From Octopus vulgaris (taxonomy: Eukaryota), in assembly GCA_951406725.2 (NCBI GenBank), contig OX597832.1, forward strand, positions 31,248,001-31,312,000: a stretch of 64,000 bases of DNA, in the 5' to 3' direction. The number at the start of each line of letters is the position of its first letter. Position 1 is the stretch's first letter. The translations under genes were made by a program, and so were the position numbers. This document shows, in pieces, positions 5,346-46,100 of this stretch. The notes beneath the pieces are model-generated. The model worked only from the letters and a program-made list of their open reading frames with translations, had not been told where the DNA came from and did no database searches.

Positions 5346-5589
5346 GAAGATCTTGTTTCACGCGAACACTTCTGGGACATAATGGACAGGAGACTTCATA
5401 AAAGGAACAAGAAAGCAGCCTCAAAGCCAGATCTTTTGAGATTACAGCATGAAACTTGGCAAGAAATTCCGCGAGAGAACAATGATAATAAAGGTGTCTA
5501 TTTACTTCTGTCATGTGTGTGTGTATGTGTGTGCGCGTATATACATATATAAATATATACATACAAACATACACACACACACAAACACA

Positions 5590-6879
5590 AAGGCAAGTAA
5601 AAAATTATCCGCGTTTATCGCCAAACCACGACTTTCTTTAGCTTTTCCCCTTCGCTGCCTTTTCTCTTCTCGCTAAAACATGGTACTTTTGTGGTTACGT
5701 AACTGAGATTTGAGCTTAAACACTTCGGTTTTCTTGTATTATAGAATAAATATGGTCCCTCTGCTTGTGGTGTGTACCAAGAACAACAGAGAGCAGTGGA
5801 TCCTATTTCTTTGGCCTGGTTGGGGGGTGACAGGGGCTGGAATTCGTCCCAGGCTTTCTGAACAATACGGGGACAAAGTTCTGTCGGATCGAAGTATTAG
5901 CGGAGAAGTTCAACAATGGCCGGACAAGCGAGTGTGAAGCCTGAAGAGTGAGCAAGGCCGCCCATCAACTTTCACCACTGACTTAGAGATTCGACCAGCT
6001 TTACCGATGCTCCTGGCGAAGCGACGAGCGAGCATCGATGAAGTGGAACGACCTCTGCAAGTCAGTCATGGATCTGCATACGAAATCATCCATAAGTTTT
6101 ACTTCTGTGAAGTCTGTGCGAAAAGTGCCAAGAGAGCTTACCGAAGCGTGTAAGCGCAAACGTGTGTAGATCGGTCAACGCCCACTTGACCGCTGCAACG
6201 AGAAAGCGAAGATTTTCCGAAGAGAATAGTCATAAGAAATGAAACCTGGGTCCGTGACTTTGAGCCAGAATCCAAAAGGTAGAGTATGGAGTGGGAATAT
6301 TCGGAATCGTTTGTAAAAAAGAAATCCCAGACTCAACTTTCCGCAGAAAAAGTGATACTAACTAGTTTTTTTCTTTTAGCGGCAGTGGGGATCAAAAAGG
6401 CCTATTCCTGGAAAAAGGGGTCACCAGTCAGTAGTGTAGGCTACAGTGAAATGCTGGCCACAAACTGAAACCAGCAATTCGCACCAAACACCGAAGTCTG
6501 TTGATAAAGGTGTTATTGCCCACACGCAGCCGCCCAAAATGTCGAAACAATTGAAATGCTGGGTTTCAAGATGCCGGAACACCTTGCATCGAATCCAGAT
6601 CCGGCCCCTTCGGACTATCACCTCTTTGGAGCGTTTCAATCATCTTTTTCGAGGTCGCCAATTTGCTACAGACGGAAAGGAGCAGAAAGTAGTGCCTAAA
6701 TGGCTGCACGACCAGCCGAAACCTTCTTCTCCAGTGGAAGAAGAAGCAAGCTTTTGGACCGCTGAAATACATCGAAAAGCAAGGAGGCCATTTCGGAAAA
6801 TGAGGGAATTGTTCAACCCCGGATTTTCTTTTAATAAATTACAGAAACAAGATTGCGTATAATTTTTGATGAACCTTCA
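5590..6879 (+). mobile_element. Near-full-length decayed mariner element with imperfect TIRs
   Basis: Motifs RLSEQYGDKVLS, IRNETWVRDFEPESKR*SMEW and PDPAPSDYHLFG. Left end aaggcaagtaaaaaattatccgc resembles the reverse complement of right end gcgtataatttttgatgaacctt; ~1.3 kb. Confidence 0.85.
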
Positions 6880-21279: not shown

Positions 21280-21348
21280 TCAAATTGTTGACTTGGAAAA
21301 TGAAACACGCAAATGATTGCTTTCACTCAAAGGATAGTTGTGGAGGCA
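21280..21348 (-). CDS. PTBP1: PTB terminal coding exon ([22 protein letters not shown])
   Basis: tttgcag|TGC CTC CAC...ATT TGA; C-terminus matches the PTB family end [11 protein letters not shown]. Confidence 0.97.
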   Translation of the reverse strand, partial: CLHNYPLSESNHLRVSFSKSTI

Positions 21349-24300
21349 CTGCAAAGAGAGAGAGAAAGAGAGGAAGAAAAAAAAGAAGAGCATTCGGTTA
21401 GGATTTCCAGAATTAACCCAAGGATTAGGCTTTTTTTTTTTTAAATGGGACGTTGACAAAAGCTTGAGGGGGGGAGGGAAGAAAGGGGGGAAAAAAGAAA
21501 AGGGAGCTTTGCATTCAGTGACCAACTCAGTGTATTTGATGGCAGACAAAATACATGGCACTACTTGGATGCACGATTTCAGCAGGTGAAAAAAAAAAAT
21601 GTACAACCAGGGATAAGATTAACTTATAGGAGTTCCAACTCTGCATGTAGGTACCCAGGGTGGTTTTCTTTTAATTTTTCTTTTGGGGTGGGGGGTGTCT
21701 TCAATGCTATCAAAGAAAGTAGCTTAGACAGTTACCAGGATTGTTAAAGGTTTCTTGCTCAACTTAGGGAATTCTATTCTACATAAGCACCAGCTACATG
21801 TTGCATCCCTAAGGATTTTGAAGAGCAAGAATATAGTGTACCACATCAGTCATGAGCGCCATGGTTAGAAGGGGTAAGAATAGCACAAGGTACAGACAGG
21901 GCAAAGCATGAATCAGGTTAAGGAGAAACAAATACTTACAATAAGAGCTTTCACAGCTTCTTCAATGGATCCCATTTGGATGAGGGCCATTTTCCTGTCT
22001 TTCCTAGAAGGAAAAAAAAAAAAAGGAAAAAATTTTATAAATACTTTTCTCAAAAACTATAAATACAGACAATGAGTTTTAACTCCTCCACTTAATCCTA
22101 TAACATTGATATTACGCTTAATTGTTTGGAATTATCTCTCAGTTTCAAGATCTTAAAATAACATTGTAGGGCAGGTGGGAAAGACTAGATCTGGCCAGTT
22201 TGAATGTAAGAACAGGTTAAATATTTTGGCCAATCAAAAGTACTGGTAGACGAAGCACTAAATCATCACCATTCATTGTCCATTCCACCCTCCAACTCCC
22301 ATGCAAAGGATGGGCCAGACAGTTCGACAGGATCTGGGTGGGCTGAGGGGCTGCCTCAATTTCCAGTGCCAGCCAGGGAATGGGTCCTTTGTGGCTGGAC
22401 ACCCTTCCTAATGCCAACCAATTTACAGTTTGTACTGAACGGGCATCTTTTTCTGCTGCTGGCACCAACGAAATCACTAAGTAACTTGCAACAAAAAAAC
22501 CAAAAAAAAAAACCATTCAACGAAGGAGAGGAGGGGGTGCGTTTGTGTCAGGGTAAAGTATTGTGGACAAACAAGCGCAGGCATATTGCTACAGGAAAGA
22601 TAGCAGAGCTGCCCAGCATTATATAAAGGCGAGTGGGGTGACTTCCGAAACAGTCTACATGGGTCCATCATTAAATACCATTATTTATTAACAGCAAACA
22701 CTGAAGTGAAATAACTCTAAATAATTAGTAAATATATTAGTGTGTAGAGTAACAGCAGCCATATTAATAAGTGAAAGGACAACATGGGAGCCATGATGCA
22801 GTCACATGATGAGGGGTGGCCAAACCTTAAATCACACACTCGTCTACACTGAGCATTGAAACCTTTGGTAAGATAAGAATTTTGGTCATTGGCAAAAGCA
22901 GTCAAGAGAGATTAGGTCTTACGCCTGCTTTTCCATGCCAGCATGGGTTAGATAGCATTGGCTCACAGCCTGATGCCTTTCCTCTCACTAACCACATTTT
23001 TAAGTAAGAAAGATGTTACTCCACATGGCATTGAAAGCATGAAGCAGATGATGGACAGTTTCTAGTGAAGAGCACTGACCACCTTACCAAACTGGACACT
23101 CAGTTCCTATTGATCCAATCAACTGAGCACTCCAGACATGCCCCACCCACCCCAACCAAATGTAGTTCTCAAAAAAGGACAGCACAACTACATGAAGTGT
23201 GGCAATTACAGGTACAACACATTTCGGCCAGTCGAGTGGACAGGAGCAATGTGAGGAATTGAACCCACGGTCTTAAAATTGCGAGCTAAACACAGCAACT
23301 ACAGTCACATGCCAATGGAATCAGATACAGGCACAAACACACACATAGAAAGATCCTTCAGTTTCTGCCCACGAAATCCCCACTGGCAAGGCTTTGGTTG
23401 GCCCAGAACTATTAGAGACGACATTTGGCCAAGGTGCAGTGCAGTGGGAGTGAACCTGGAAGCAGGGGATTGGGAAATGAACGTCTTAAACCACCCCTGG
23501 CCCAGCCTTCATAAATAAAGAGAGAGGAAACAAAATACTTACGGAAAGAATTTGAACCCTTTTACAGTGCCATATTCAGCAAACATATCTTTGAGCTGTT
23601 CTTCAGGAACATTAGATCTGAAGAGGGTAAAATGAGAGGGATTCAAGGAATGGAAGAAAACATGAGCAGAAGTGAAATATTCAGGAAGATTTGGAGCCGG
23701 AAGAAAGTGGGTCCGGGGATACTCACGGAATGTTAGATAAATGCAAAACTGCTGAGGGGGGGAATATATTCTGACAGTTCTTTGAGCCAGGTCGCTTGAA
23801 TCTGTGGAGTGGGGAATTTGTGTAGTCTCTTGTTAAGCCGGAATCCTGCAACGAGAACCAAGCAATAGCAGAATGATACAAGAAAAAACAAAACCGATTA
23901 ATTTCAAATTTCAAGTGAAATCCATCAATGCCAACGGATAGATATTTGCTACCTGCTGGCCTTCCTTGGGCATCTGGACCACTGTGTGTTTGGAGGGAGC
24001 CACCCTGATCTGTTTGCCATACAAAGTCAGCTTATCCAGGTAAGTTTTGGCTGAAACAGAGAGAAAGAGAGAAAATGAAACATTAGAGGCGTTTTGTGTG
24101 TGTGTGGGGGGTCAGGGTCGGAAAGGATTTAAGTTGATAAATTACAACCGGAACAGCCAAAGAGTGAGGGGGGGGACGGAGGAGAGAACTTACCTAATTG
24201 AGCATGGTGAGGCTCCGCCATTTGTACCAGTGCATTATCCTTCTTGTTGAAAAGGATTTTCACGCGTTGCACATCACCGTACACACCTAGTAAAATAAAA

Positions 24301-25891
24301 AGCACAACATGTACTGAGACTGGAGTAAAAACCGATGAACCGAACTAGATTTGTCGAGGACTGGGTCTTAGGAAGACACTAGCCAAAACCCTGTCTTCGA
24401 AACACCTTAACATGGAACTCACACCCCACCCTGCACCATACCGTAGTGGTTTGGCCTTAACAAGGAAGGACAAGTTTGTTTTTGTGCCAACAGGGGCCAG
24501 TCTCTTTCTTTAAAAGTGGCCCAAATTAGGATTCAAGGAGCCTGCATTGCTTTATTAGGATATACAGGTGTGTGTGTGTAGCTGTTTCCATGTCAACATG
24601 GATTGAATCAGAATATTGTGTAAAATAAGTACAACATGTGGTGAACGCCCAAGAACAATATGTGAAAATGGAAAGTGCCAGAATAAGTTTTGAATACAAC
24701 AATAATCAATGCTGTTCTAAAGAGGTTCTGCATAATTTCTGATTAAAAATGCCCAATGGTCGAGCTTTGGGAATGGAAATTGGATGAGCCATTAGCGAAA
24801 CCAAAACTGTGTGTGTGTGTTACATAAAATCTGTGCTTTCTGAAGAGCATGCGTATTTTGAGCAGAGTGGACCATATGATACCAGACTAAAATACCTGAC
24901 TGAACCTCCTGACACAGCCAGGGTCTCCACCACCACTTACCTGAGGAGGGGAAGAAGGGAGAGAGAGAGAGAGAGAGAAAGAGAAAAAAAAAAAAAAGTA
25001 ATCTTTTGAGTGTAACTTTATGTATGAAAAACCCACGCAGCCCTTGGAAGAAGTAACCATCATACTTTATTAAAACGGTTCTTTAGGCTATGTTGGAAAA
25101 TAATCAAACACTGAACACCTCACCTGTTGTCAGGAGAGAGGAAGAGAAAGAGAGAAAGATGAAAAGGGGGAGGGGAGGGGTCAGAAAATTAATTAATTAA
25201 AAAAAAAAAAAAGAAGAAAGAAAACTAAAAACAATTAAAAAAAATATATAAATAAAGCATGATGGAAGTAATTGGTTTCAAGACTGGTTATTAATTTAGA
25301 AGAAGCTGAAGTGAGTGATCTTGGAGAAGGTTTGGTTAAGTTAGTTGGCACTAAAAGAAATAGAGCTGGACACAATAGAGACTCAGTCAGGTAGCAGCAG
25401 TGGCAGCGGCAGCAGCAGCACATCTCTTGGTGTTAAAAGAGAGAACATTAAATGAAATGTCACTTAGCTTTTCTAAGTTTTTCTATATAAATTGTCAAAT
25501 GAAATAAAAGAGTGCTTAAAAACATACCAAAAAGGGTAAAAAGAACGTCGGGCGTGACCATCTAGAGTCATAGGAACAGGAATATAGCAGAGCGGAAGAT
25601 AGGGTGAGATCAGTGTCCGAGCGAGCGATAGATAGTCCATGTGGAGGAACACCAGCGAAGTAAGTTGGGACGGAAAAAAAAAAAAGAAAAAAAAAGAAAA
25701 AAAAAAGAGAAAATAGGAACAAATCAGTGTTGTTGATACATGATTGTGTAAAATGGAAGATAAACTCTGAAAAAGAGCAAAGAACAACAATATCAATGAA
25801 AGTAATACAGTGTGGTACAGGCAGCAGTGGCTGGTCAAGGGTGGTTAGTTGGGCAGCTAGTGTAGCAGTAGCATCAGTATAGGAGGAGGAG

Positions 25892-25922
<31 letters not shown>

Positions 25923-27455
25923 TGGGTAATTAGTGGGGGGAAGGGGGAGAGAGAGAGAGAGAGAGAGGGAAAAAAAAAAGACATGCTAATGAGGAAGCAT
26001 GCATAACGAAGTATTGAAGGAGAGGAGAGGGAGCATTTGGTTGAAATTTTGGGGAAAAAAAAAAAAAGAGAGAGAGAGGGGGGTGGGGAAAAGGTATTCT
26101 AAAAGAGCCAAGTGTTATTTGTAAGGAATTGTGAGGTTTTGTGAGAGATGGTCAGATGTGGACAGAGCTAGCTGATGTAGAAGAGACTGGGTCAAGAAAC
26201 CACAGCGATAATGGTCAGAGGTTTGGGTGGCTCCAGCAGACAAAGACAAAGAATTGGTGGACCAAAGCAGGAGGAAATTGTTGAGAAGTGGAAGAATTGT
26301 TTCTCATGAGATGATGCATTGAAGAAAAATGAGAAATCCTGCCCCACCCCCTAACCATTAGGTGATATGTCGGAGGAGGAGGAGGAGCTTTTTCTACAGA
26401 CAGTGTTTGGAAGACACAAGAAGTTTGCAGTTAGCACCATATCCAAAACCAATCTTGATCCATCATGAGTTTGTTAGGCAGAGGAGCACATGGATTGGGG
26501 TGGGGAGGAGGAGATAAAAGAAAAAGTCTTCACAACAAAAATATTTTTTTTTGGTAGTAAAAGTTCTGCGAAGGAACCAGAGAAAGAGACAAATTCTAAA
26601 AATCTAAAAAAAAAAAATGAAAGAAGAAAAAAAAAGATTCCTGGTCAAACAGCAAAACACTTGTGGGCAGCCATTTTGTGGGAAGTTGTCCACTCAAATG
26701 ATGCAGTGAGATTAGAGAATGGAAAGGAGATGGCGCAGGCAGATAGGTCGCAGAATGTAGAGGCCTGCGAATGTAGAGGTGGTGGTAGACCTTAATACCC
26801 CAGTCTTTCTGTCCAGATAAACGTTTTTTTATTTTTTATTTTTTCTTTCTTCTGTATAGATGTCAGGGTATAAACTAGACAATATACGTATCAAATAAAT
26901 AAAGGGCACATACCTCTTCATCCAGATTGGAAACCAAGAGCACACAGTTACCAGCTTGAGATTGTAAGGGCATACTGAGCCGTGCAGCACCCATACCTGC
27001 AGCAGTCAAACCAAAGCCAGACATCGGTACAGCTGATAGAACAAAAAAAGCAACACAATTAATTTGACTACATTAGTCCCTGCTTCAGTGAAGAACCCAC
27101 ACCTTGAGTTTAGTTGTAACCGCAGCAGCAGCCGTTGTCGTTTAACACTCTGTTGTCACTTCACACTATTATTATTATTAGTAGTATTAGTATTAATCAT
27201 TTAGAACTTTGCTAACAGTGATGATGAAGCAGGGCTGTTCCTAATAAAATGTTTGCAATAAGCTTTACAGTTTACAAAGATAATTTTATTTAAATATAAA
27301 TAATTGTGGATTGATTTTAAATTTCTAAATTGGAATTGTAAAGTCTTGGTTTTAAATGCAAAAATGAATCTAAAAAAAATACATGAAAGTAGGTTAGTAT
27401 TGAGAGAGAGAGAGGGAGAGAGATCGATACATAAAATGAAACATGCAAGAATATT

Positions 27456-27493
<38 letters not shown>

Positions 27494-29079
27494 AAATGGG
27501 GGAAAGTGGCAGTTAAGTAGGAGGACCCCACAAAGATGCCCCTCATTAAACGGTGGTTCAGAGATGTGTTACAAATGTTGCTGCTGTGAAGTCTGGTTTC
27601 AGATGAAGAATTTACGAAACTGCTAATTACTACAATGCTTACTTATCGCCTACCAATTTGCCTGTAAACAGTGCAGTGAACGACAATGTTCACCGATGTT
27701 AACATGAAACAATGGTTCACGGGGTCAAGAAGACAAAGTTAACATCACTGGACAACCAGAATGTCAAAAAGGGGTCGGGAAACACACACACCATTTTACA
27801 TTAACCTGTTAGCAGCATTTCAAACTGGACACATCTAAACCCTGTCCAAACTGGCCCCTCACACCTATCCTTACAACATTCTAAAAATCTCATTATTCAC
27901 ATCTCAAAGCTACAAAATACTGCATGAATAATTCAAAGCAATGTGAATAAACAAACAGAACATTTAACAAGGTAAGCTGAATATCAAAAGGGTTAAAGGT
28001 AATTTGAAATTAACCAATTTAGCCCCAAATTGGTAAAAATATCACCAAGAGAAAACAGAAGAACTATTTTTCCACTCTCTGTTGTGAATCCCCATGGCAA
28101 CGACCGTGTTTGAGGGCACAAAAGACACGGGTGGAGTGGAGGCATCCCAGTTTCAGCAGGGCATATACAGAGTGCCAGGGACAAAAATTAGCTTATATGC
28201 TGTCCAGCTTTGAGGAGCCAGGGTAATTTTGAGGTGTGGGGTAGGGTGCTTCTTATAGGCCAGTCAACATGGGTGACCTCTTAGGAGAGCATCTTTCATT
28301 TGTCTAATCCATACTAGCACGGGAGAATGGACTTGGAATGAAGTGACTTGCATTATACAAGAGACAAAAACCATATTCTACAGAAAGGAGACATCAATTC
28401 AACCCAAAACACATATCCAGATACCCCAGAAAAACTATTACACAATGCTATAGGTACAGGGGTGACTGTGGTGGTGGTAGTACCCTGAGCAAACGTCTTC
28501 TACTCTAGCCTTGGTCTAACCAAAGTCAGATGGAAACTGAAAGAAGCCTGTCATATGTAGTAGATTGTGTGTGTGAGAGTCTGTGTTTGTCCACCATGAC
28601 AACTGGCGTTGATGTGTCGACATCTCCGTAACAGTGGTTTAGCAACAGAGACCGATGTTGTAAGGGGTCAATGGGTTCAATCAAAATTTCTCCAAGGCAG
28701 TGCTTCACCATGGCCATAGTCTAATGCTGATGTATGTGAAAACATATGCATGAGTGTAGAGGTTTATTAAATAAAGATCATAGGTGAGGGTCACCAATCG
28801 CTGGTCCCTGTAGACCCAGAGTAAAAGAGATCTCCCTCAAACCACACTTCATCTCAAAATGGCAATCATATTGGAGTTCTAAATGTTTACACGGGATGGT
28901 CATGGTTGGAATGATTTTGATCAATGGTCTGCTTGTTCAGTGTTGACAAAGCAAAGATCAGGGACAAAACAGCAGTTTTATTAACATATAACAGGACGGA
29001 CAGACAGACTCACAATCAACAGAGATCAACAAGATTAGTAACGAAGCCTCAACAAGAAAGAAAGAGAAAGGAGAGAGAG

Positions 29080-29111
<32 letters not shown>

Positions 29112-30113
29112 AAGAGCCTTTGTAGACAATAAAATGCCTTTCAGATTAATTGACATTAGTCAAATCAGTCTCCTCGTTAGTTGGATGCTGAAGTTAATTA
29201 GAAGACCGGTCAGTTCTGATAAACAAACACTACACGACTAACGACTAAACAGTATAGAAAACTCACAGCAGCAGTTGTTAGTAGAGAGAGAGAGAGAGAG
29301 ATGAAATGAGAAAGAAGAGAATGGAGAGTATGGTTAGAGACAAACAGCAGAACATGCAGAGAGAGGAGGGATTAGAAACATTACAGGTAGAGTTGAAAAA
29401 AAAAAAAAAAGGTGGGGGGGATAAGGCTACCAAAAGAGTTGGAAGAGAGACTTACCTGGCGGACCCACTCCGGGAGCTACAAGCAAGAGAAATGCAAAGA
29501 ATCAGGCTAGAGCCTCAGAAGGAACGGTTTTTATGAGGATTAAAGACATGTCAAAGTTTAGAAGGGTGGGCGGGGAAGAAGAAGAAAAAGATTACCTGTA
29601 AGTAAGTCAAGAAAATGTAACAAGGTACACCAAGATTTTGCAAGACCAAGGACCAAGGCATGCAAGAGAGAAAAACCATGAGAAGAGGACCAAGCAAAAG
29701 AGAAAAGATTTTTTTTTACCAAACCCAGAACAGATGACTGATGGGGTTTAAGATCCAGCAGAGAAAAATGTGATTAATTCTTTTAAATTAGAACAAACAC
29801 AGAGAAGATGGCTGAGAGTTTGAAAATAGGCATTTAGAAAGATTTAGCAAAATTCTACCTCCCATCACCTTGGTTGAAGTGAACTAGCAAAGATATAGCC
29901 AGGACAGTTTGTCAGAGGAGCAAGCAAAGCTAAATCCATGCCATAAAGTTTAACCAGGGTAGTAGTGCTTTTTAGATTATTTTACACACCAGAAGTCCTA
30001 AGAGAAAAAGGATCGTTAGACATTAAATGCAAATAGCACGCAAAAGAGAAAATGGATTTTTTTTTTTTTAAAAACAGATGTTGCATTATATGAAATGCAG
30101 TAGGGCTGGGGGA

Positions 30114-30154
<41 letters not shown>

Positions 30155-33100
30155 ATAGACCAAACACAAAAGAGATATTAGAAGCATGCATGTTCAAAAC
30201 TACCACCCTGGCTTATCAAAATTAAAAATGCTACACTACCAGAAGTGCAGATCTGCATATCAGCACCAATATACTGCTGACTGGGGTCAGAAAGCAGCGT
30301 AGCTCCGGGTGCGGCACCAAATGTGGTTAGTGGGGCAGTTCCTAGGCCAGGCACAGCTGCAATTGTCGACGACAACACACCAGGGGAACCTTAACACATT
30401 CGTAAACAAGGAGCATGCGATTAATCCAACGCTTTAACAACACCAACTGGACTCTTGCATACGTTCCATCTAGAGTTGAGTTCACGAGAAACTCTTAATC
30501 GAAAAACATCTGACGACCAACGAGTTTTATCTGATATGCTAAACGCACACCTGTACAGAATATGTAGAATTTATAAAAGTATTTCACTGTTAAAACTTGA
30601 GATTACTCATAATTAGTAGCTTAGATGGAACATACGCTAAAATAAATATAAAAATTAATAATAAAAATAACGATAAAAAGAATGAAATCTTAAATTAAGA
30701 GCCTGGCCAACTTTGCCCAAAAATGGATTTCATTAGACAAGATATTTCATGCAACATGGACTGGCCAAAAATTTGTGTCTGTGTAGCACTAAAGTTGGTT
30801 AAATTGATTTCTTCGACAGGGTCAGATGAGGAAGAACATGGATGGGAAGGAAGGTAGGGTAGTCGAGGAAGAATAAAAGCAGGTGAGCAGAGCAACCAAG
30901 CATTGGAGGTGGGAGGGTTTCCTGCCTTCCAGTGCGAAGGCGAGTCCAAGGCCAAAAACATTAGGTGCACAAATGAGATAAGATGGATGACGATGATGGT
31001 AAGAGCAAGAAGCACAACAGAAAGAGATGGAAAAAACAGACAATCATATCCGTGGGAAGAAACTCGAGTTCAGAACATTTCTCTCTTGCTCGCACACCAA
31101 ACACATTCAGAGTGTCTCAAGAAATGGTTAATTCATGGCAGAAACAGAATTAGAAAAAGAAAGAAATTCATGAGTTGATTGGAAAATCGCTTTTCAGTAC
31201 ATTTCACAAGTGTGTGTGTGCATGTGTGTTGTAGTATGCGTGTACACACACGTATATATAAAAAAATGGAAGAACACAAAAAGAAACAATACAAGGTAGA
31301 AATATATCAGACGTTTGTCTAAAACTGAGTAATAACAGCGAACCGTCAGCTTGGAATGAATGTTAGGTGTATATACGTGTGTGTATATACGTGTGTGTAT
31401 ACACACATACAGAGATGAAATGGAAAAGAAAAAAACAAAACCAAAAGTAAAGATATGATTTGTGTTGATATTAGTACGAAGAAAGTGCTTCACAGAAGTC
31501 ACAAAACACTGAGCTTAACAATGGCTTTAATTGTCTTTAAATTAGTGTAATTAAAGCAATGAAGGGTAAAATGTAAAGTAGAAATCATTTCTAATAACGA
31601 CAGTCTTGCAACTGTTTACATATTTCCGGTTTTATACTCTTCTCATAACATGCACAAGAATAAGGACTGATGGATTCGATGGAAGTGTACTTACCAAAAG
31701 TCAAAGCCTGATCCACGGAAGCGTCACCAGCAGGGAGGCTGGGATTGGTGTAGTCTCGGCTCTTCTCATTATTGTACTTTACATTAAGACTCGTCATTTT
31801 TGAATAATCAATTCTCATCGTACAGCACCCATTGTAAATATTCTGACCATCCAAAGTCTACAAGAGAGAAACCAAACCATTGGAGTAGGGGCCAGTAAAC
31901 TTCTATCACTGACCTCACCCATCCCACCAGTAGGGGCCAGTAAACTTCTATCACTGACCTCACCCCCCCCACCAGTAGGGGCCAGTAAACTTCTATCACT
32001 GACCTCACCCACCCCACCAGTGGCCATCATACAAATTTCTGAATGAAAATTACAAAATGTTTGACATGCCAGATCAGGTTAGTTTAAATGCTAAAGGGGG
32101 TGCCACATAAGAAGCACCCGGTTCATTTTGGGCATTAGGGAGGGTATCAAGCCATATAAACCCTGCCAGAGTCTGGTGTAGCTCTCCAGCACCTCTCAAA
32201 CTGTCCAAGCCATCCATGCCAGCATGGAAAAGATGTTGGATGATGAAGAGGATGGTACTTGGAATTTGGTGAATATGGGTTGATTGCATCGAGGTTTTGG
32301 ATGGAAATTATTGAATTTTTAGCCTTAAATTCTTCATGCTCTTCTAAATTTATATCCACACTATCTTCACAGCGTTTAAAACTTAACATTTTTTTCTGGG
32401 ACCTTAAATAGCCAAAGTGACCCTCAACAGTATTAACTACTTTGCCAACCCTGCATTAGATCAATGGCCATGCTAGAACTAGTTTTTTTTTTTTTGGGGG
32501 GGGGGGGCATCAGCTGACATTTCTGCTTAGAAGAGAAAATACAGGAATCCAGATTTCACTTAGCCCTTAATTATAGCTGACTTCTACTAGCACAGGTCAG
32601 ACACACACACTTCTGCTTATAAAATCCACTTGCAACATTTCATAGACAGCTCAGAGCTTTAAAACCATTTGTTCAAGGTGCTTGCAAAGTGGGACAATCC
32701 GAACCACAAAGTTGAAAAACAAACTCCTTCACCACTCTGCTATGACTGCAGCTTTTCTAAGCAGCCACTAACCTAAGTACGAACAAGGATTCAAAATAAC
32801 TGCCAACATGAACTACAGGGGGTAAACCCTTCACAGATGTGAAAAACTGTACTTACCATTCGGGCACTTCTTGCACTGACTGGGTCGCTAAACTGTATGA
32901 CGGCCTGATAGGTATCTATGAAGAAAAGAGTTGGAAGCCCAGTTAGCCTCGTCAGAAGCAGGTTTTGCAGGAGATACATTATCTAAGACTTATTTGATTT
33001 TGAATTTGGTGGGGGATTACTAAAACAACATCGTCAGGAGTCTGAATGCAACTTTACAAAAAAAATGTCTCATGCAAAATTATGTCGGTAGCCACACTTC

Positions 33101-36100
33101 CTTTCAAATTTGCTTAACTGTGAGGGGAAGAAAAAAACCCTCCATTTTAAATTGAACGGTGTATCATGCTGGCTGTTTTGCAATTAAAAAGAGTGGCGAC
33201 ATTTTGAGGAGAAGTGGCACCAATAGAGAGTGTGTACACTTTGATGGGATTTGTTGTCAGAGAAGCAAGGGTTAAGTCTTTAACATTGTAAGAGTGCTCC
33301 TGCCACCCATTTCTTTAGGAAACAAACTTCAAAGAAATATACTCACTATTTTTTGTGAATGTAATAATCTTCTGAATCGTCCCAAATTTGCAAAATATCT
33401 GAAAAAAACAGACCAGAAGTGGTGGTCACATGATTGATTAATTCAAAGACATCAATGAATCTTGATTACATCAAAGCCGTAATTATAAATCTCGTTATCA
33501 TCTTTACCTGATACAGAATGTCTATGTTGATTTGGAACACCATGTTATCTATAATAACTCTCAGAATGGTCTTGTTCATTTCCTCTGGACTTCCCATGAT
33601 GGCCTGTGCAGCCTGCAAAGCTGCTTGAGTATTTGTGTTCTGGAAAACAACAACAGCAACATTGGAGGACAAGATATACAAACAAAATGGAAAATATCAC
33701 AAGAGAGTGGAACAAATGTCAGAAAGAACCCCAACACATTCACTCGTTGTGTGCATCAGAGAAGAAGTCAGGTCAACAGAAAACCTTACCTGTACCACAG
33801 AATCACACATTTTGGCAGTTGACTATCAGAGAATGCAGCTGACCATAAAAGCCAGTTCTAGAAACATGAGTCACCATAGAACAGGAGGAGGTTAGAGAAA
33901 TTTTAATTCATGATAAAAGTAAACCCTTGCCGAACATTAGAGTGAACGTATGTGGCCTAAAGGTTAAGGGGATATTGGATCAATCCTCCTCTGACTGGAC
34001 CGTATATAATGCCCTTGGGCAAGTCATTTCACTCTACATTGGCTGCAGCCTGTTTATCTGAAAATGAGCGCCAACAGCAGGAGCTGTGTGACCCAACCCT
34101 GCAATAGACTGGCATCCCATTCAACATCCTCACTTGTTTTACTGCTACAAACAGGGACAAGCACCAACCCAAAGGAGTTTCTGGGCAGAACACATTCCTG
34201 ACACCAGGACAGTCATTCTCAACCACTTTTTCTTTTGATGACTCATTTTACTCTGGTGGATCCCCTAACCAATCTTACTTCAAAGATGTCCCTTCCAAAA
34301 GTCTGTAGAAACACACCCAAAGCAACATTTTTTCATGGAGCCAATTTGCCATTTTTTCTTGTACGGACCCCAGTTGAGAAATGAAATTTAATTTAGAGGT
34401 TTACAGGTGAGAGAAAACATACTACAGCAGCAGCAGTAGTAGTAGTAGTAGTAGTAGTAAGTAAGAAAACAGTAGTGAACCCACTTGATAAGGATGTGCT
34501 ACGTCTATCTTCAACTCCTTGTGGTTGGAAAACTGGACATAGACATCTTTGTTGCGTACTCTAGGTTTGTCGTTTGTGTAATATAACACCATTGATTCTG
34601 CTTGTCTCTCGTCTGAGAATTCCATGAAAGCCTACAGACAAAAACAAAAGGCAAAGATTAAGTTTGCAACCAAGATGATGATGATGATGATAATGCATTT
34701 CACAGAACATTCAAAGGGATGAAGGCCAAGCAAAGTGGAAAACTCTACTCGAGTGTGAATTGCAAAGAAATTAAAAGGTGAATGCATACCTGATTCTTTT
34801 GCTTCAGGAGTAGAAAATTGGTTATGCGGCCAAAAGGTATGCCAAGAGGAATAACATCTTGGTCAGATGCCTCTATTGGGAGACCACGCAGATGAACAAC
34901 TTTAGACACTGTAGCTGCCTGGCTCTGCTCCAGTTTTACCTACAAGTTTAAAAAGAAGAAAAAAAAAACATTTTATTTCATATTTCTATGGAAAATATTA
35001 ACAAAACAAATGTTTTACTTATTAACAACTCTTTATTCACCCAAGATTATCATCAGCAATGAAATGGACTGATGGTCTGATGCGATTAATTACACAAACA
35101 GAATGCAAGAAATAAACACCCTGCCAGCCACAGTTACACTGCCAAGGGAGGGAGGGGAGGGGGAGTGAGAGAGAGGGAGAGCGAAATAATTCATCCAAGA
35201 ATGAGTGTAGAAAGTGAACAGTTCTCAACAGTGTATAAATGAACATCACTAAATATTGATAGGAAATATTTGTATGTACTAAAACACCACAATTCCAGAG
35301 TTATCACACAAACACGGTATGGTCCCAATATACAAAAAAGAGGAATTCCTAACATTAATAACGAGAATATAATTCCAGTTTGCAACGGCAACAAAACAGA
35401 CAAGATGTGTATTTGGGACACGGGCACCTACACTTAACGTTTGTATCTATACGCTACAATTTCTCATCACCGTCTGGCCTCTCCTAACAACTTCAGCATC
35501 CACACTTGCACACAACTAGTTTCACTTGATATTCGAAGCAGAAACACATGGCCAGACACAAAGAAGCACCAAGTTGCCAGCTAACATCACCACCACCACC
35601 ACACGCGACTAATCAGGGAGGGACTTCAATATTCCAAGTTACAAGCACACTGGGGGAATACATATAAAGAGTAACATGCAAAAGTTCACAAAACTCCTTA
35701 CCTTTTTGGCATCATTGTTCATATCTGCACTATCCACGTGGTGGGGGCTCATCCCGGTCCCGTTCGTAACCATTGGGCTGTGGGACATAAGTTCTTCCGA
35801 TCCTCTCTGTAATAAAATAGGCAGCAATGTCACAAATCAACAAAAACTGTATTATTATCCAACAATTTTTCCTTTTTTTGGTGGGGATTGTGTTAATTCT
35901 GTATTCATTGACAGAAAACTCAGTACTCACACAGAATTGAAAAGCAATTGATTTGCCCGGTAAGACTTGCTCAAACAATTGAGAGGTTATTCATTATAAA
36001 TGTCGGCATCCACCCCTGCCTTCCGCCCCACAAGCCGACTGCATTTCTTAGAACAAACACCAACTGCACACACCACACTGAATTCCAATGTTATAAGTAA

Positions 36101-39100
36101 GTACTGACTGACCAGTCGAGAATTCCGAGAAGTATAAAAGATAAAACAAAAAAACAAACCAAAACAAAGCCTAACTCTTGCCCCGTTAACAATTAATGAA
36201 TGAAGCCAAGTGTCTGATTAAGTTGTGCTAAATAAAATAGAACCAGCAAGTGGCTTATTAATAGTGCATTGGTGCATGGAGGGAGACGGAACAGCCATAA
36301 TTATGTTAACCATTTAAGCGCCATCTTCAATTTAAATGGTTGCAATACAAGCCCCGTACCCACTGGCACTGAAGAGGGTGGTGAGGAAGAGAGAGAGAGT
36401 AAAAGGTAGCTATTAGATACAGCTGCAGACATAACTCTCACCCTTTGTGGTGGTGGTGGTGGTGGTGACTACTACATTACTGCCAGTTGCTAATATACCA
36501 TAAATTTAGCAACGACACTGCTACAGATTATGGTTTTTAAATCAGAAAATTGCCAGATGATGGGAGAGTAAGTTTTAATACTAGATTGCAGAGAGAATTG
36601 TAAACACTGAGGAGTGTGTTTGTGTGTGTGCATGGGAAGCCAGTAACTGGCAAACACGTTTAACAGAAAGTACTCATGAATCATTGAACCTGAGTACATA
36701 AGACAGAGACATAAAGAGCTCACTCAAATAACAAGACCTGTGTTGTGTGTATAGACATTTATATACACAAAGACATTCAATACAAACCACCCTAAATGAA
36801 GTCCAGTTTTGAAATGTCAATACATAAAAATATCTCTCACACACACACCTACGTTCCCAAAACTTGAGTAGGTCATCACCAACAATACAACACCATACAA
36901 TTTAAATGATTTCTTCGTTCAGTCATATTGATAATTATTGAAAAACTGACTAACGATCCACAATTCACACGCAGTAAATGAAACACTTCTTACCTAATAT
37001 CTCTGATTACATACTTCCATAATGCCTAATGGCCTAACAGTAGTAGTAGTAATACTAAATATAGCTTTTACTACCATCACCACCACCACCACGTGTGGTG
37101 TGTGTATATGTTTTATGTGTATATATATTATATATCAGCAACAACAGTGCAGTTCTGTCTTCTTCTCCGCTAAACACTTTGGACCCAATACGTGAGTCAT
37201 ATTGAATGAGTCAGTCAGAAGAAGGGAACTTTTTTTCCCCCTCCTTCTCTTTTATACACAAGGAATAATAATGTAGTTGTAACAACAGCCAGTAGTTTGG
37301 CCTGACATTTGAACAAGCCCAGACTGTGTATTATTGAGAGAGGTTGATGTAGAGTGCTTTAATGCAAGCTGTCAGATCATGAAAGGGGAAAGTTGTAAGC
37401 CAGAGGAGGAGGAGGAACAAGGCAGGCAGCATGGATGGAGAGACAGAGCCAGTGAGGAGGAGGAGTAGCAGCACAGCCAGCCAGAGCTATCAGTTCAAAC
37501 AGATCCCTTTTGCTGATAATTCCAGTCAAGTTTGATGAGGAAAGGGGGGGGGGTACGGAACACTTACATTATGGCTTTCATTAAAAGTGCCAGGATGTGA
37601 AAAAAAAATTTGGATATTAGAAGAGAAAAATGAAAGTATTTAAGAAGCGGAAGAGGTGAAGCACTGACACCACCCATCTTCAATCTTTAAAAGCTTTCTG
37701 TAAATAAACAAAACATGGGAACAGATTGCTAAAGCCGATAATTCTAACAACATAATCATGTCAGTATGTTAAAATAGTGACTGGGGGCTTTTACGAAATC
37801 TTAAATCCATCATCGAGGGAACTCCAATTGATGGGGAAAGTCAACAGCGGTTTTCCTTTGCCTTTTAAACCTCTACAAAAAACAATTCTCTGAAACACTG
37901 TGGTTCTTCAATTCGTATCATTTAATCATCCACCCACACACCCTGAAGCGTGTAATTCACCCACCCCAGAAATTGAGGTGCAGGCATGGCTGTGTGGTAA
38001 GAAGTCTGCTTCCTAACCGCATGGTCCCAGGCTCAGTCCCACTGTGTGGAAACTCAGGCAAGTGCCTTCTACCACAGCCTAAGACTAACCAAAGACTTGT
38101 AAGTGGATTCAGTCGGTAGACGGAAACTAAAAGAAGCCTGCCATGTGTCTTCTTTTTTCCGTACTTGTTCCACCATCACTGCTTGCAGCCAAAGAGTGTG
38201 ATAGACTAGCAGGTTTAAAATTCTTCAAAGTGGTGCCCCAGCATGGCCACAATCTAATGACAAACTAGACAAAAATACACCACTCCTTGCTGTAGACCAA
38301 ATCAAATTTTAAAAAACATTGCAAAGCAGAATCGATGTCAACTACTTTGGATTAAAATTTTACATTAAACCATTTAAAAGTGAAGGGAAAATGTCTTGGT
38401 CAGTGGTCAGTGAAGGGGATGGTATTTTTGGCTCCTGCCATGACCCTTCTTCACTCCCAAGAAAGGCTCAGAGAGCACACTGAACCAGCTATTGTTCATC
38501 TCTGCTGAGGTGGGAGTGGGGGTGGCCCCTATTAATTGATGTGTGAATACTACCAGGTCTTGCCTGACTTCACCCACTGAATTTATACAACAACAACAAC
38601 AAAAGTAATTGAACAGAAAACACACATTCCACCACCACCCCCCCCCATGGCCGCCACCTCGCTCTATCAGCTGTTACAATTGTTACTCAGTGTTGTTGCT
38701 AATGAATGTGGGCCACATGAAACCAAAGGTGACAGCTGCTTCTGCAACTTAACACATCTCATTCCCAACAACAACAACAACAACAACACACAAGCTTTTC
38801 CAAACAAACATCAAAGGATGAATACAGTTTCTGAAAATATGATACATCTCTCCCCCACCCCAGGGACAGATTCATGAACAATTCCAGTGAGGGGAGGGGA
38901 GGAAATTTACAATTATTTCACAGTAAATAAAATATTTAACATGTTTATATAACTACAGAATATGGACAGTGGTAGGATGGATGCAGTAGACATCAGAGCT
39001 TCCCCCCGCCCCGCAATAATGTTAGCTGGACAGAATCACTCCACACATGACTAACCCACCTGAACCAAGTCAGTGGTTAACCTTCACCTATTGCCGAAGC

Positions 39101-40797
39101 AGACAGGTGGAAGGACAGGGCACTGGCAGTAGGATTATCTCCCTTGTATGCACTGTACTCCAGTGACATGAGTACACCCCCCCCAGTCCCACTGCTTAAG
39201 ACAATATTTGGATTAAAGTACAACAAATGCCATCAGTAAGATTCTTGCCACGGAACCACCTGGTGAACAAACCAAGGGGTTACAAGGTCCTCTAAAACAC
39301 ACATTATAGTAATGTAGTTCCTAAATTGACAACAGTCAAGAACATTCCATTTTTGAAAAGGATCTGAGATCAGTTCCAACCAACAGCAACTACATACGGC
39401 TCCCTGTATTGCTTCTGGGACTCTGCTGAACTTGCCAGATATAACTTCTTTTTTTTTTCAGTGGTCGTGACTGTATACACTTACATAGGGCAGAGCAGAC
39501 CATAGACATACAAGCATCACCACCAGGTCCCATACAACTGGCTCCCAGAAATGGGTAAATTTGCTCCTGCCAACACTAATATTTCTACTCTGTACAAACA
39601 TTCTTATTGTTACCTTCCAGTTATTATTATGGCAATGAGGCGGCAGAAACACTAAAATGTCATGGGTTCCCCTTGACCACAGAGTTCAAATTCTGCCAAG
39701 GTCAGCAACCTTGACCTTCCTCATCAAGGGTTTGGACGTTGATGGTCCCTTCCCCTGATAGCAACTGCAGGACCATTGTTTAAATTAGAAACCCAATAGT
39801 AAAGGTTTCAAACTCTGGTGCCAGACCAGCAAATTAAGGGGTAGTGATGCCCAGTACATAACTGGTACCAGGGTCAGTATTGACTCTGAAAGGATGAAAG
39901 CCAGTTCCAAGAAAGGTCATTGAGCACTTTGACGCACAACTGCCAGCTGTGTAGTGTGGTATAAATTATTAAAAACTAGCAAGACAATCCATCCATTGAC
40001 TTTCTCCTGGATCAGTTGGATCAATACGTTAGTATGGAAGCCCAATGGCAGCAGCAGCAGCAGTGACCTAAACCAGTCATCAATACATACAGCTATGATG
40101 ACTCAATAGAAACATAGACCAGGGGATGATGCTTAAAAAACAACCCTGAAAAGAAAGGAAGGGGGTCTTCATAGTAGGGACCTGTCCACACCAGCACCAC
40201 CATCAAAATCCCATACATGTTGGTCAGCCTGGCAGCTAATTAGTCTATGCAGTAATTAGAATCTTCAAACTTTTACATATGGAAAATTTTTTCATTACAA
40301 AAAGGAATAAAAAAAAAAAAAAAAAAAAAATTCTTTTTACAAGTTTCTGCCAGTGGACCCACACACAAAACATGATACCACCCCTGGTTCCATGGTATAA
40401 ACTTCCTGTTTATAAAATGGTGATCAAAATTTATAACTTTCTCTCAATTTTGGCATCAACATCTGGGGCAGAAATCGACCACCCCTTTATTCTTTTTGTG
40501 AAATAAAGGGTTACACCACTATTAAACATGTATACACAAACGGACTCTCACTCTTAACGAGTGATCAACCCAAGTCTTGTGACATAGAAGAAATTTTGCC
40601 CAAGGTGCAGCAGAGCAGAACCGAACCTGGTACCACGTGGTTGGGGAGCAAACTTAACCACAGCCATGTTTGTCTGTAATAAGGTGGGACTATTATATAT
40701 TTACAGACCCCCACCCCCGGGGCATTTAAAATAAATTTGAGGGAATCGAAACCACTTGGCGGGCTCTGGCTACATACAGACAGCAACATAGACTGGT

Positions 40798-40845
<48 letters not shown>

Positions 40846-43115
40846 CACACGGGTGAACAATAAAAAGGCTTCCCAGAGCCAGTGAAAGCAGAAAAAAGAT
40901 ATCTGAAAGGAGAAGCAGGGGAAGAAGAGGAGGTGGCGGCGGTGGTTATTATGGAAAAGGAGGGGAAAAAAAGGCCAAACAAAAGAAGCAGAAAGGGAAG
41001 TAAGATAGAAGAGGAGTAAGGGAGAGGAAAGTCTTAAGCACCATGTGCTGCTTGTGTTGGGGTTTTATTGTGGTGTTCAGGGAGGAACCACAAAGGAACA
41101 ACAAGATCAGAGAATGGCTGGGAAGGGAAGGTAAGGGAGCAAGCATTTAACAGAACAGGTTTCTATACACACACACACACACACACACGGTGAGGGGCAA
41201 GCATATAAGATTATAAACACACACACAAGGAGGACCCATATTCAGAGAGAAGGTTCCAAGTGTGGTTATGTGACATTTATGCCCTTCCCATAATTAGTGG
41301 GTCATGAAAGGGCAGTAGCCAAGGATGGTAGCAGGACAACGAAAACATCCATCGCAGTCACATTAAAGAAATAAAAAAAAAAAACTTTGTAAAACAAACA
41401 CAGCAAAACATTTTATGTGAGAGAAACCTCGTGGGTAGGAAATTATTTTACACTTCTATACATACATCTAACTATACATAATACACAAAATCACAGTGGT
41501 GAGAGAAGTCTCTCTATGAAAAACAGTGGATCTCGAAGCACCTAAAACTATAAATAATAGCATGTAAACCGTTTTGGATAGAAAAATCGAAGGCCACTTA
41601 AGAGAAGTAGTATACGAATGACAAATCTATACACAGAACCAAACAGGTGACATACAATATATATATATATATACACACATATATGTGTGTGTATATAAAC
41701 GTATTTATAGAGAGAGAGACACACGTATTTATATAGAAAATGCTGATTTATATCTGGTAGAAAAACTCACCTTCCTACTGACAGGGAAAATTTGTTCAGT
41801 GGCAAACTGTAATGGTAATATTATCTCACTGGGTGGTGGTGGTGGACCCGGGGCTGGAAGGGTGGGCAGAGGCTGTACAGGAGGTACATGTAGTGGAGCT
41901 TGGTTGTAAGTCGGATACCAGCATAAATACATCTCAGGACCGTTGCGAGATGGGTGGGGTGTACAACAATTTCTTGTTCCAAGAATTTATATTTTGTGTA
42001 TATATATATATATATATATATATTTGTGTGGGGGGAGGGTGTCAATAAATCCGGCGTGGTGGTGCAGGTGGCGGCGGCGATGATGATGCCGTTCCAATCA
42101 TCGTAAATTCCAGTTGTGATAACGCTAATATTGGTGGTGTAGTCATTGACAGGTGCCCGATATACGGGCGGGCGAACTAGTGCCACCAGAGGCGCTGTTG
42201 TGTACAGACAGCAACTGGAGGCTCGGTTCTAGAGAGAGAGAGAGAGAACACTGGCTGACTGTAATATGTATGTGTGTGAGTGTGTGACAGAGAGAGAGAG
42301 ACACACACAGAGAATGAGTGTTAGAAGAGGAGCGTGTATGTGTATGTGAGTGCGTATCTCTCTTGTCACCAGATCTGTCCCAGTATGAAGAAAAAAAAAA
42401 CAAAATAAAAAAAAATAAATATATGAACCACCACCAAACCACACAAGCCTTATTTTTCTCACACAGGCAAATCTCGTTAGTTTTAGTTTAGTGAACAGCA
42501 GCGGTGGTGGTGGTGGTGGTATTGGTGGTGTTGACGAGGGGGGAAGAGAGAGAGAGAGAGAGAGATCGAGAGAGAAAAAGCTGGAATCAACTTCTACCAC
42601 TGGCTACGATATTGAACAGCAGCAGCTGTAACATTTCTGCTGCTGGTGGTGGTGACGACGGCACAATAATACAATTGCTACATTTTGCATGGTAAAAGCC
42701 CAACTTTCCCTCTCTCTCTCTCTTTCTTCTTTTCCCCCTCCTCTTTCCAAGCAGAGAGGCTGCTAACACCACCACCACCACCGCCGTCGCCACCGCACTA
42801 TAGATTTTTAAGTGCTCTCCTCTCCTATTGAAAAAATAGTGACAATGGGTTTTAAAGCTTGAAAACAAGACAGAACCCGTCGTGGAAAAGTTTAGGTTGG
42901 GTCGGTGAGAGGAGAGAGAGAGAGAGAAGCAACTGGTGGTGGTGGAGGGTAGGACTAAGTAATTGGTCAAGCATACCGAATGCCTGACAATAGCGAAATA
43001 TCAAAGGCCAACAAGCAGTCCTTTCATTTAGCATGCACCAGAACACTTCATATTTTAAATTATACATACATACACATACACTCACAAATACATACTCTAA
43101 ATATTAGATATACAT

Positions 43116-43158
<43 letters not shown>

Positions 43159-46100
43159 AGCGTTTCCAGTGAAATATGTAAAAGTTAACATTCAAGAAGC
43201 TGCACCTCTCTTCTCTTCTCTGCGCATTTATTTCGAGAGAGAAAAGGCGGTAAAATACGAGGGAGGTGGTGGAGAGGGGGGAAGGCAAACATAGGTAAAC
43301 AGAGGGAGGAGGAGGAGGAGGAGAGAGCGAAAGGTCCCATGTGGTGGAGCATTACCGAAGTGTCCACATTCCAGCTTAATATCACCATGAATAAATAAGT
43401 AGAACATGAAATGGGGAAAAAGAAAAACACAAAACAAAGAGATAGAAAGGTAAGAAGAGGGTGTGGGGGGCATGGAGGGAGTGTACAGTGGTGGCGGCGG
43501 TGTTGAGAATCAATTACAATTATTAAAAGAGGAAAAAAACAAAAAAACAAAAACAAAATTAATGATGTAAACCAGATAATGAAACAATACTAACAAACAG
43601 TAATAATGAGTGACAATGAAGAGGAAAGTAATTTAAAAAAGAAAAAAAAAAAAAAATGAACAAAATGAAAACGAAAGCTAATGAGGGGAGGAGGGGGGAC
43701 GACGACGACATGCCAGAACAAATATTATTAATTGCCAAAAGTAGATGCTAATGAAATAATTAACATAAGAAAAATTAAGGGGGGGGGGGAGGAGGTTAAT
43801 GAGCGATGAGGAAGTGTTTCACCAGCAACATTTATACAAAGCCAATATGGTTGCGGTGACAGAGTACAATGGGGGAGGGGGGCTAATGGGTCCCACCCCC
43901 CTTTGAGGAGTTCAATGGAAAGATAAAGGCAATCAACGTCAAAAAAAAAAAAAAAAAAAATCAAGAAAAGGGACCCAGGGAGAACCACGATAACAGAATT
44001 TCATAACAGTCGAAACTCCGTACCCCTGGCTGCGACGCTAAACCACAGATTTTCCATTCTTTCCCTTGGAATGTTCTGCTCAAAATTGCAGGTCATCATT
44101 TTGGTTAGAGACACATCACACCCTGCCATTTAAAACTCCCCAAATACCATTTTTCTTTTAAGTTTATTAGTTTCATTCAATGGACCGTGGCCAAGCCTTG
44201 GGCGTAGAACAAACTCAGTGGTAGCATATAAGCTTGTGACCCCATAGGGGCCATCAAGCCAAGCAGATTTTATCTGGAACATAGAGATATGGAGGGACCC
44301 CCCCCCCCCGACATACACGTAAAGCATAAAAGTGGTCATTTACTCCAAGATCCGTTTGGATCCAGTAAAATCTCTTATCAAACAAGATCTACCAAATCTT
44401 TTTCAAACAATATCTATGACAACACCACACTAAGAGTTCTGTCCAGTAAACTTGTAGTCAAAAACGTTCCATTATGACCACCCCGATCTATCTCTCATCT
44501 AGACAATATATTGAGGGCTTATACTATCAACTATTCAATTCTGAAGAAAGGTCTGCCTTCAGTTATAATTATCACGTGAAGTTCCTTTTGCCGACCAGGT
44601 AGATGTATAATCACAACAGTTCCACCCGTGACCATCTCGGGTATACTACAACCCTTTAACTAAGAGATCGAGATACCGCACATGTATTAAAAAGAAAAAA
44701 GGCCGTGTTGGGATGGAAGTTAAAAAAGACCACAAAGAACAGCAGAGGGGGTGGGGTAGGGCCTCCCCCCCCCCGGCCCTCGCCAACTACCAAAACTGAG
44801 CAACCATCATATTCCATCCAGTAGCTCACAAAATGCTGCCAATTACAATATCCCAGTCATCTTATGACATTTAAGACAAATTAATCCGTGTAAAGCTCGC
44901 TTTTCTAAGCTCCCCCTCCCCCCACCGCCACCGTCGACGGCAGAGCAGCACCACTCAGACATTTTAACATAATTTCGAAAAATGTGTTGACATTTAGCAA
45001 TGTTATTTGCCATAAAGAAGAGAAGGCAAGCAATTAACATAGAATCTAGCAAACAGCGATATAAAATATTAAAGAGAGAGAGAGAGAGAGAGAATGAGAG
45101 CAGGAGGAAATGACTTTTTGCTAAAACATCTCTCATACAAACTCTATTGGGACATTTTTACACAGAACAGAAATAATACAACTTTTAACAGAGCAATCAC
45201 GAATATATTATCACACCTCCATGTTTTAGAGAGAGAGAGAGAGAGAGAGAGAGAATGTCAGGGGAAAATGCCATTGTAGTTAGTGTACTTTCTGCTGGCT
45301 ATTTCCATTCAGAGTTCAAATCCCACACAGGCCTTAGTTTAGCTTTCATCCCTTCAGGGTCGATAAAATAAAGTACCACAAGTATTCAGGTACATGGTTA
45401 TTGACTAGCAACCCCCATCACCAATTTCAGGCCTTACATCCTATTCTTATAGTCTCAGAAGTATTTCTCTTTAAAACCTTGTGAAATAGGTTTCCAGATT
45501 ATTTCAGAATAACAATAGAAAGTCCTTTATACAAATATTGTATAGTATTAAAAAAAAAACCCTTAAAAAGTGTGGGTTGGTCCTTAACTTACACTGACAA
45601 TAAAATACAGAAAAGAAAATGTTTTGGAATGTTAAAAACAAAGGATAAAGCACTCCTATAGAAGTTTTGGTGAAGCTGATAAGGATTTAGAAAGACATGA
45701 CAGGATATTGGTACTTGAAGGAACAATGGAGAACTGTTGGCAAGGTCTGTTTCCACTTGGACACCAAAGTGGAGTGGCAGTGAATGAGGATGGATGTGGT
45801 TTCGTTATAATCTTGGATGTTTATCTAAAAACCAGCCCTCATCCTAACACACACATTTACAAAGATTAGACCTCACAACAAGCTCACATTCGTTACTTGA
45901 CCATGGGTTAAGAGCCACATCACTACCTTAAAATGTAATACCTCCCCCTCATGAAGGGACAGCCGGACTCTTATGTAACCTCCCTCCGCCCTCAACCAAC
46001 AATTCTGAAAGTCACACACACAACTTGATGGGGGTGACCCAATCACTACCTCCTCCTAACACCTTGTCAGTAATAGCAACAGATTTATTCCAAGGGTGTC

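Follow-up and report, generated by a model that had tools for sequence, protein, structure and literature searches.

A 34-nt exon of the octopus PTB gene as a probable counterpart of the autoregulated PTBP1 and PTBP2 exons

The PTB gene of Octopus vulgaris contains a 34-nt cassette exon that is very probably the counterpart of vertebrate PTBP1 exon 11 and PTBP2 exon 10 and of C. elegans ptb-1 exon 11, and that likely serves as a negative-feedback switch. Skipping of the exon brings an early stop into frame, and skipped messages occur in a snail, in annelids and in arthropods. Thus, octopus PTB likely limits its own level. Our analysis covers a 64,000-nt stretch of O. vulgaris DNA (the window), in which the gene lies on the minus strand (Table 1).

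The octopus PTB gene and its 34-nt exon

Joining 15 coding exons, which begin at 35807 and end with the stop codon at 21282-21280, gave one open frame with four RRMs, only when the 34-nt exon was included. Exon map and protein comparison both identify the host gene as a four-RRM PTBP orthologue. The initial annotation had assigned it to a probable mollusc, and the peptide of exon g is indeed 100% identical to annotated Octopus PTB. At two diagnostic sites the gene has the O. vulgaris form, where O. bimaculoides or O. sinensis differ. The peptide of the exon downstream of the cassette matches PTBP1 and PTBP2 chains in the PDB. All Octopus matches among the 120 protein matches listed and the 9 of a second search resemble isoforms of one gene, and no second octopus PTB paralogue was found among them.

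Table 1. Features of the octopus PTB gene in the window.
Feature	Position	Strand	Basis
Octopus PTBP gene span	21280..47069	-	coding sequence mapped between 47069-47046 and the stop (21282-21280)
Alternative linker exons	near 30390-30240 and 29476-29456	-	annotated isoforms mapped to window
Upstream exon (end of linker and RRM3 beta strand 1; phase-0 donor)	26914..27032	-	exon map, isoform comparison
AG-exclusion zone upstream of cassette (203 nt, 74% pyrimidine)	25562..25764	-	AG scan of 14 mapped acceptors
Candidate distant branch point CACTGAT (A at 25724, offset -163)	25723..25729	-	sequence prediction
Second branch-like CACTGAT (A at 25610, offset -49)	25609..25615	-	sequence prediction
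34-nt cassette exon (phase 0 / phase 1), in RRM3 just past first beta strand	25528..25561	-	exon map
Donor GTATGT and intronic CAC...TTTAT element	25503..25527	-	also present in PTB genes of vertebrates, insects, gastropods and others
183-nt stretch between two polypyrimidine-CAG/GTRAG sites in the intron after the cassette, with in-frame stop inside	24941..25123	-	site scan
Downstream exon (93 nt), acceptor of skip junction	24194..24286	-	exon map, PDB peptide match
Premature TGA in skip frame	24260..24262	-	translation of 26914-to-24286 join

Sequence, length and coordinates of the cassette (25561-25528) agreed with the initial annotation on the minus strand. The exon is preceded by a TAG acceptor and followed by a GTATGT donor. 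It lies in RRM3 between phase-0 and phase-1 introns at vertebrate positions, and its site is that of PTBP1 exon 11 and PTBP2 exon 10. An internal U-rich tract had also been described. The exon is 71% pyrimidine, and it ranks highest of 13 exons in pyrimidine share both within the exon (0.71) and upstream of it (0.73); the tract in the exon is present largely because of its Leu/Phe codons.

Joining 26914 to 24286 reproduced the skip-frame stop that had been proposed at 24262-24260, five junctions before the last exon. The TGA is 66 nt from the next junction and 422 nt from the last. By the usual rule, a message becomes an NMD target when its stop precedes a downstream junction by more than 50-55 nt. 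The octopus skip stop lies beyond this distance, so that its message would be a target if the rule holds in molluscs. In some invertebrates, distance to the poly(A) tail matters more for NMD than downstream junctions. Either rule would flag the octopus skip stop. No octopus or cephalopod skip product was found in the protein searches: 24 of 24 tabulated proteins include the exon, and none of the 9 other matches is of the skip type. Note that annotation sets would tend to leave out NMD forms. A cephalopod-like sequence (P0121) runs past the upstream exon into the intron and is not a skip product.

We rejected the idea that the stop at codon 9 is hard-wired. The Val codon concerned is purine-ended in 33 of 35 cassette-bearing sequences, compared to 22 of 54 others, but a neighbouring Val codon without a stop role is equally biased (31/35). 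Moreover, the rows are phylogenetically redundant and NMD is independent of that exact position.

Several other features of the gene were observed. The RRM2-RRM3 linker (30390-30240, 29476-29456, 27032-26914) is heavily alternatively spliced among annotated Octopus isoforms, which use a long exon of two lengths, a 21-nt microexon and two starts of the next exon. This parallels the splicing of vertebrate PTBP1 exon 9. Two alternative N-termini are encoded on separate upstream exons (41932-41771 and 47069-47046), one beginning with MYLCWYPTY; a 'MYVCY' start, similar to the octopus N-terminus, occurs in the PTBs of bivalves and other molluscs. A tandem acceptor at 23848-23845 accounts for annotated isoforms one Val apart (EGQQD and EGQQVD). 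Just upstream of exon g (31885-32020) are ~3 head-to-tail copies of a ~45-nt unit. Stop-to-stop frames at 5047-5604, 6440-6862, 2468-2794, 1621-2196 and 3065-3700 of the window resemble, by eye, decayed mariner/Tc1 transposase and LINE reverse transcriptase.

The exon and its skipping in other animals

Scanning metagenome contigs with the DNA of the downstream exon gave at least 117 loci. Among the loci listed, an acceptor AG stands at the octopus site in 47 cases, while 65 loci read through and 5 contained skip junctions. The initial annotation had proposed comparing exon-intron structure across bilaterian PTB genes. This comparison placed the cassette at the same boundaries, as a separate upstream exon, in 25 of the 47 genomic contigs listed, with a length of 34 nt in 23 and of 31 nt in 2. 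Both lengths are 3n+1, so that the cassette is always frame-shifting. The 31-nt version occurs in mollusc contigs (L022 and L035) and has one codon less, with the frame still shifted. The 25 contigs include vertebrate PTBP1-like, vertebrate PTBP2-like, termite-like, bee-like and mollusc sequences; many rows are redundant, three being termite-like and ~12 coming from one long-branch clade, which may be rotifer-like. The cassette was not found in the other 22 contigs, of which 17 had less than 300 nt of upstream sequence and the rest 396-2065 nt, so that it may lie farther upstream. An upstream phase-0 donor was present in 13 of 20 contigs examined, among them L002 and L037. A likeness of the octopus exon to PTBP2 exon 10 had been noted, and this held: the vertebrate PTBP2-like contigs L002 and L018 carry the PTBP2 peptide given there and agree with the octopus exon at 26 of 34 nt. 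For the insect-like contigs L011 and L013, identity to the octopus cassette is 30 of 34 nt.

The exact skip junction was present in five spliced contigs among the loci listed (L003, L007, L047, L069 and L116). In these contigs the upstream exon is joined straight to the downstream exon and adjacent junctions are spliced as well. All five stop eight residues past the junction (codon 9), as the octopus message would. Four differ from an included partner by a single 34-nt gap, with identities of 297/300 (L003/L019), 300/300 (L007/L030), 297/300 (L116/L017) and 272/287 (L047/L040); L069 had no close included partner. In a FastTree tree of 79 of 82 rows (L034, L068 and L107 were left out as too short), L003 grouped with the caenogastropod Littorina (support 100) and L047 and L069 with the annelids Owenia, Capitella and Paralvinella (support 88), while L007 and L116 fell within arthropods (support 99). 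Skip forms made up 1/3, 2/4, 1/6 and 1/2 of the loci in the tree groups that hold them. The remaining animal groups contained included forms only, with one or two loci each. An assembly artefact was rejected as the source of the skip contigs: in four lineages exactly 34 nt are missing, the edges coincide with the exon boundaries of the genomic copies, and microhomology does not exceed 1 nt. A processed pseudogene is conceivable, but it would still stem from a skipped mRNA. In the mainly open-access literature searched, we found no report of PTB exon skipping in molluscs, annelids or arthropods, and the available text of PMC10551640, PMC13247117 and PMC8797185 does not mention the 34-nt exon.

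A divergent 'DHLF' peptide was encoded at 25 loci; four of these are in the tree, where they make up an arthropod clade of their own. As an internal control, none of the 25 'DHLF' loci is a skip form. The genomic copies L023 and L036 are missing both introns flanking the cassette. Lacking these introns, the arthropod 'TECDHLF' PTB (L023, L036 and L074) would therefore escape the loop. Our guess is that it is probably a copepod paralogue.

Some sequences could not be placed. The divergent PTB genes L068 and L089 have the upstream phase-0 intron and lack the downstream intron, a hint that the cassette may have arisen through gain of the second intron. L014, a long-branch PTB gene, has a 34-nt exon and a 153-nt AG-free zone, and lacks the CAC...TTTAT element described below. 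A pre-bilaterian origin is not supported, L014 being unplaced and L068 and L089 being unplaced with the upstream intron only. A scan of prokaryote genomes gave one chance match (L118). Among protein matches (P0043, P0018, P0028 and P0145), the errors of two moth gene models fall precisely on the edges of the cassette, and two ORFs continue from the upstream exon directly into intron-like sequence. These are indirect signs of shared intron positions.

Intronic layout around the exon

The 203-nt AG-free zone upstream of the cassette is the longest of the gene's 14 acceptors, followed by zones of 138, 111, 104, 103 and 103 nt; five other acceptors thus also have zones of more than 100 nt. Against the local AG frequency the length has P ~2e-4, while by rank the chance is only 1 in 14, in a gene with CT-rich introns. 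The candidate branch point at -163 sits near the 5' end of the zone together with a pyrimidine tract, the next 30 nt being 93% pyrimidine. Judged by sequence, the octopus cassette combines a long AG-exclusion zone with a candidate distant branch point and a U-rich tract. UCUU-type PTB motifs number 13 per 200 nt upstream of the cassette, compared to 18 at two other exons. Among the loci listed, 17 contigs could be measured, and in 15 of them the cassette had a longer AG-free zone than the next exon. Zones of 453 and 411 nt were measured in vertebrate-like contigs, of 472 nt in an arthropod and of 212-242 nt in molluscs.

Of 20 contigs, 17 had GTATGT as the cassette donor, two had GTACGT and one had GTATGA. 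Positions +7 to +46 after this donor were more alike across 10 lineages than shuffled sequences (z 4.4, 0/500), in contrast to the same interval after the next exon's donor (z 1.8). A CAC followed by a TTTAT-like word occurred in 8 of 10 lineages after the cassette and in 0 of 10 after the next exon. The strict CAC...TTTAT form was found at 7 of 21 cassette donors as opposed to 1 of 1152 other donor-like sites. Note that these counts are optimistic, since the motif was defined post hoc from the same sequences. The available text of the PTB papers compared does not mention the element; it may nevertheless be known, as Figure S3 of PMC1940037 could show the vertebrate flanks.

The 1.24-kb intron downstream of the octopus cassette contains two polypyrimidine-CAG/GTRAG sites (25123 and 24940), with no others on either strand of the window, where ~0.2-0.35 were expected. 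Such sites were absent from the corresponding intron in 20 of 20 other contigs scanned. Judged by sequence, the pair could represent a poison exon, decoys, or recursive or zero-length-exon sites. A precedent for zero-length exons exists in tropomyosin.

Feedback model, alternatives and known systems

In the proposed mechanism, PTB protein would repress the 34-nt exon; NMD is predicted to degrade the resulting message, which lacks the exon and stops prematurely. Splicing of the cassette would use the branch point at -163. PTB would bind the pyrimidine-rich stretch between this branch point and the exon, as well as the exon itself, and would thereby keep an exon that is short and has a non-consensus donor (GTATGT) from being recognised. 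The product of the 26914-to-24286 join would be the NMD substrate, and the loop would keep the PTB level steady without paralogue switching. The predicted octopus cis-layout counts for such a switch, as it appears to match the regulated human exons (PMC1431707), unlike ROD1 exon 10 (PMC1940037). By analogy, so does the loop proven experimentally in C. elegans (PMC4876481). Counted against the switch are the rank of the AG-free zone, only 1 of 14 in a CT-rich gene, and the UCUU counts, which are below those of two exons.

The octopus exon might instead be conserved but constitutive, like ROD1/PTBP3 exon 10, being retained through intron-position inertia and protein constraint, with an AG-free zone that results from T/CT-rich introns. 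We consider this unlikely. It would fit the lack of a cephalopod skip product in the protein searches and the AG-free zones of 103-138 nt at five other acceptors in the gene. ROD1 exon 10 provides a vertebrate precedent for persistence without regulation, having a conventional branch point 21 nt upstream and no EST evidence of skipping (PMC1940037). However, that branch point distinguishes ROD1 from the octopus exon with its long zone, distant branch candidate and shared downstream element, and another mollusc (L003) does skip. The skip contigs are silent on which protein causes skipping, and the main driver of an NMD switch could be other splicing factors than PTB, of tissue-specific kind, that work via the conserved element in the downstream intron. 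The CAC...TTTAT element is not a UCUU-type PTB site, and PTB-motif density is unexceptional. Yet PTB dependence has been demonstrated in nematode (PMC4876481) and human (PMC1940037), and PTB and other-factor modes can coexist; control mainly by other factors is very improbable.

It is also quite improbable that skipping is regulated with a product that mostly escapes NMD to give a short RRM1-2 protein, or that control is exerted mainly via retention of a slow upstream intron or via the downstream CAG/GT sites. Skip forms assembled in 5 of 70 intron-free loci among those listed, an abundance that could mean weak NMD, and PMC5741048 mentions a possible truncated protein from skipping. On the other hand, the skip stop lies well before the last junction, and C. 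elegans skip forms are stabilised in smg-2 mutants, with PSI going from 77.6 to 65.2 (PMC4876481). Intron retention would be consistent with an annelid-like ORF (P0145) that is spliced up to the cassette and then continues into intron-like sequence. A role of the downstream sites would accord with their presence in the octopus intron, but not with their absence from that intron in all other contigs scanned.

Returning to the autoregulatory switch, the initial annotation had suggested that the feedback loop predates the protostome-deuterostome split. Orthology of the exon, the frameshift, the protostome skips and the C. elegans loop support this, and the loop is probably older than the split; skip transcripts in Spiralia and arthropods favour one ancient origin over convergence. 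The idea is not new, as it was already printed in 2016 from C. elegans (PMC4876481), so that a specialist would expect the exon in octopus. Added here are the spiralian and arthropod breadth with skip transcripts, the conserved cis-layout and one intronic element. The initial annotation had also named the neuronal PTBP1-to-PTBP2 switch, which such exons underlie in vertebrates; that switch needs two paralogues, and no second octopus PTB was among the matches listed. We tentatively propose, as a possibility suggested by sequence comparison, that the whole cis-code of the PTB switch (distant branch point, AG-free pyrimidine zone, GTAYGT donor, and CAC...TTTAT within ~30 nt of the donor) may have been kept across Bilateria. 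The element would then mark where a conserved co-regulator binds, one whose targets include human PTBP1 exon 11 and PTBP2 exon 10, and the switch would be active in Spiralia and arthropods, its loss being confined to cases in which a duplicate gene drops the introns. If functional, the element would point to an ancient regulator of PTBP1/2 exon choice, and it is the most useful lead. The octopus cassette offers a ready NMD reporter for cephalopod work, and it opens a way to study how PTB activity is reduced in a large brain outside the vertebrates, apparently with a single gene.

Among known systems, C. elegans ptb-1 exon 11 is, like the octopus exon, a 34-nt cassette in the third RRM of a protostome, and its skipping causes a frameshift and premature stop. 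It is self-repressed and NMD-coupled (Tomioka et al. 2016, PMC4876481), skip forms are absent in a ptb-1 mutant, and that paper describes its role, position and size as conserved with mammals. Skip junctions amount to 16% for ptb-1 (PMC5741048). In C. elegans, an ecdysozoan, RT-PCR on mutants served to test for sensitivity to NMD and for dependence on PTB-1, whereas for octopus, a spiralian, both are inferred. Branch point and intronic elements do not figure in the account of ptb-1 exon 11 in the available part of PMC4876481.

The vertebrate PTB loop is reviewed in PMC3856098. The regulated vertebrate exons have AG-exclusion zones of 381 and 438 nt and a verified branch point at -351 (PMC1940037, PMC1431707). 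PTBP1 exon 11 resembles the octopus exon in size, position and phase and in its long AG-exclusion zone, towards whose 5' end a branch-like motif and a U-rich tract are found; the vertebrate-like PTBP1 contig L037 is identical to the octopus cassette at 21 of 34 nt. The octopus zone is shorter (203 versus 381 nt), its branch candidate is closer (-163 versus the verified -351), and CACTGAT is a poorer match than UACUGAC. PTBP2 exon 10 is repressed in trans by its paralogue PTBP1 in the neuronal switch, while for octopus the listed matches point to one gene. The PTBP2-like contigs L002 and L018 have 9 of 12 residues in common with octopus in addition to the 26 of 34 nt, and L002 shares the GTATGT donor and has similar first 25 intron bases. 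ROD1/PTBP3 exon 10, which is unregulated (PMC1940037), differs in its conventional branch point from the octopus exon with its long AG-free zone.
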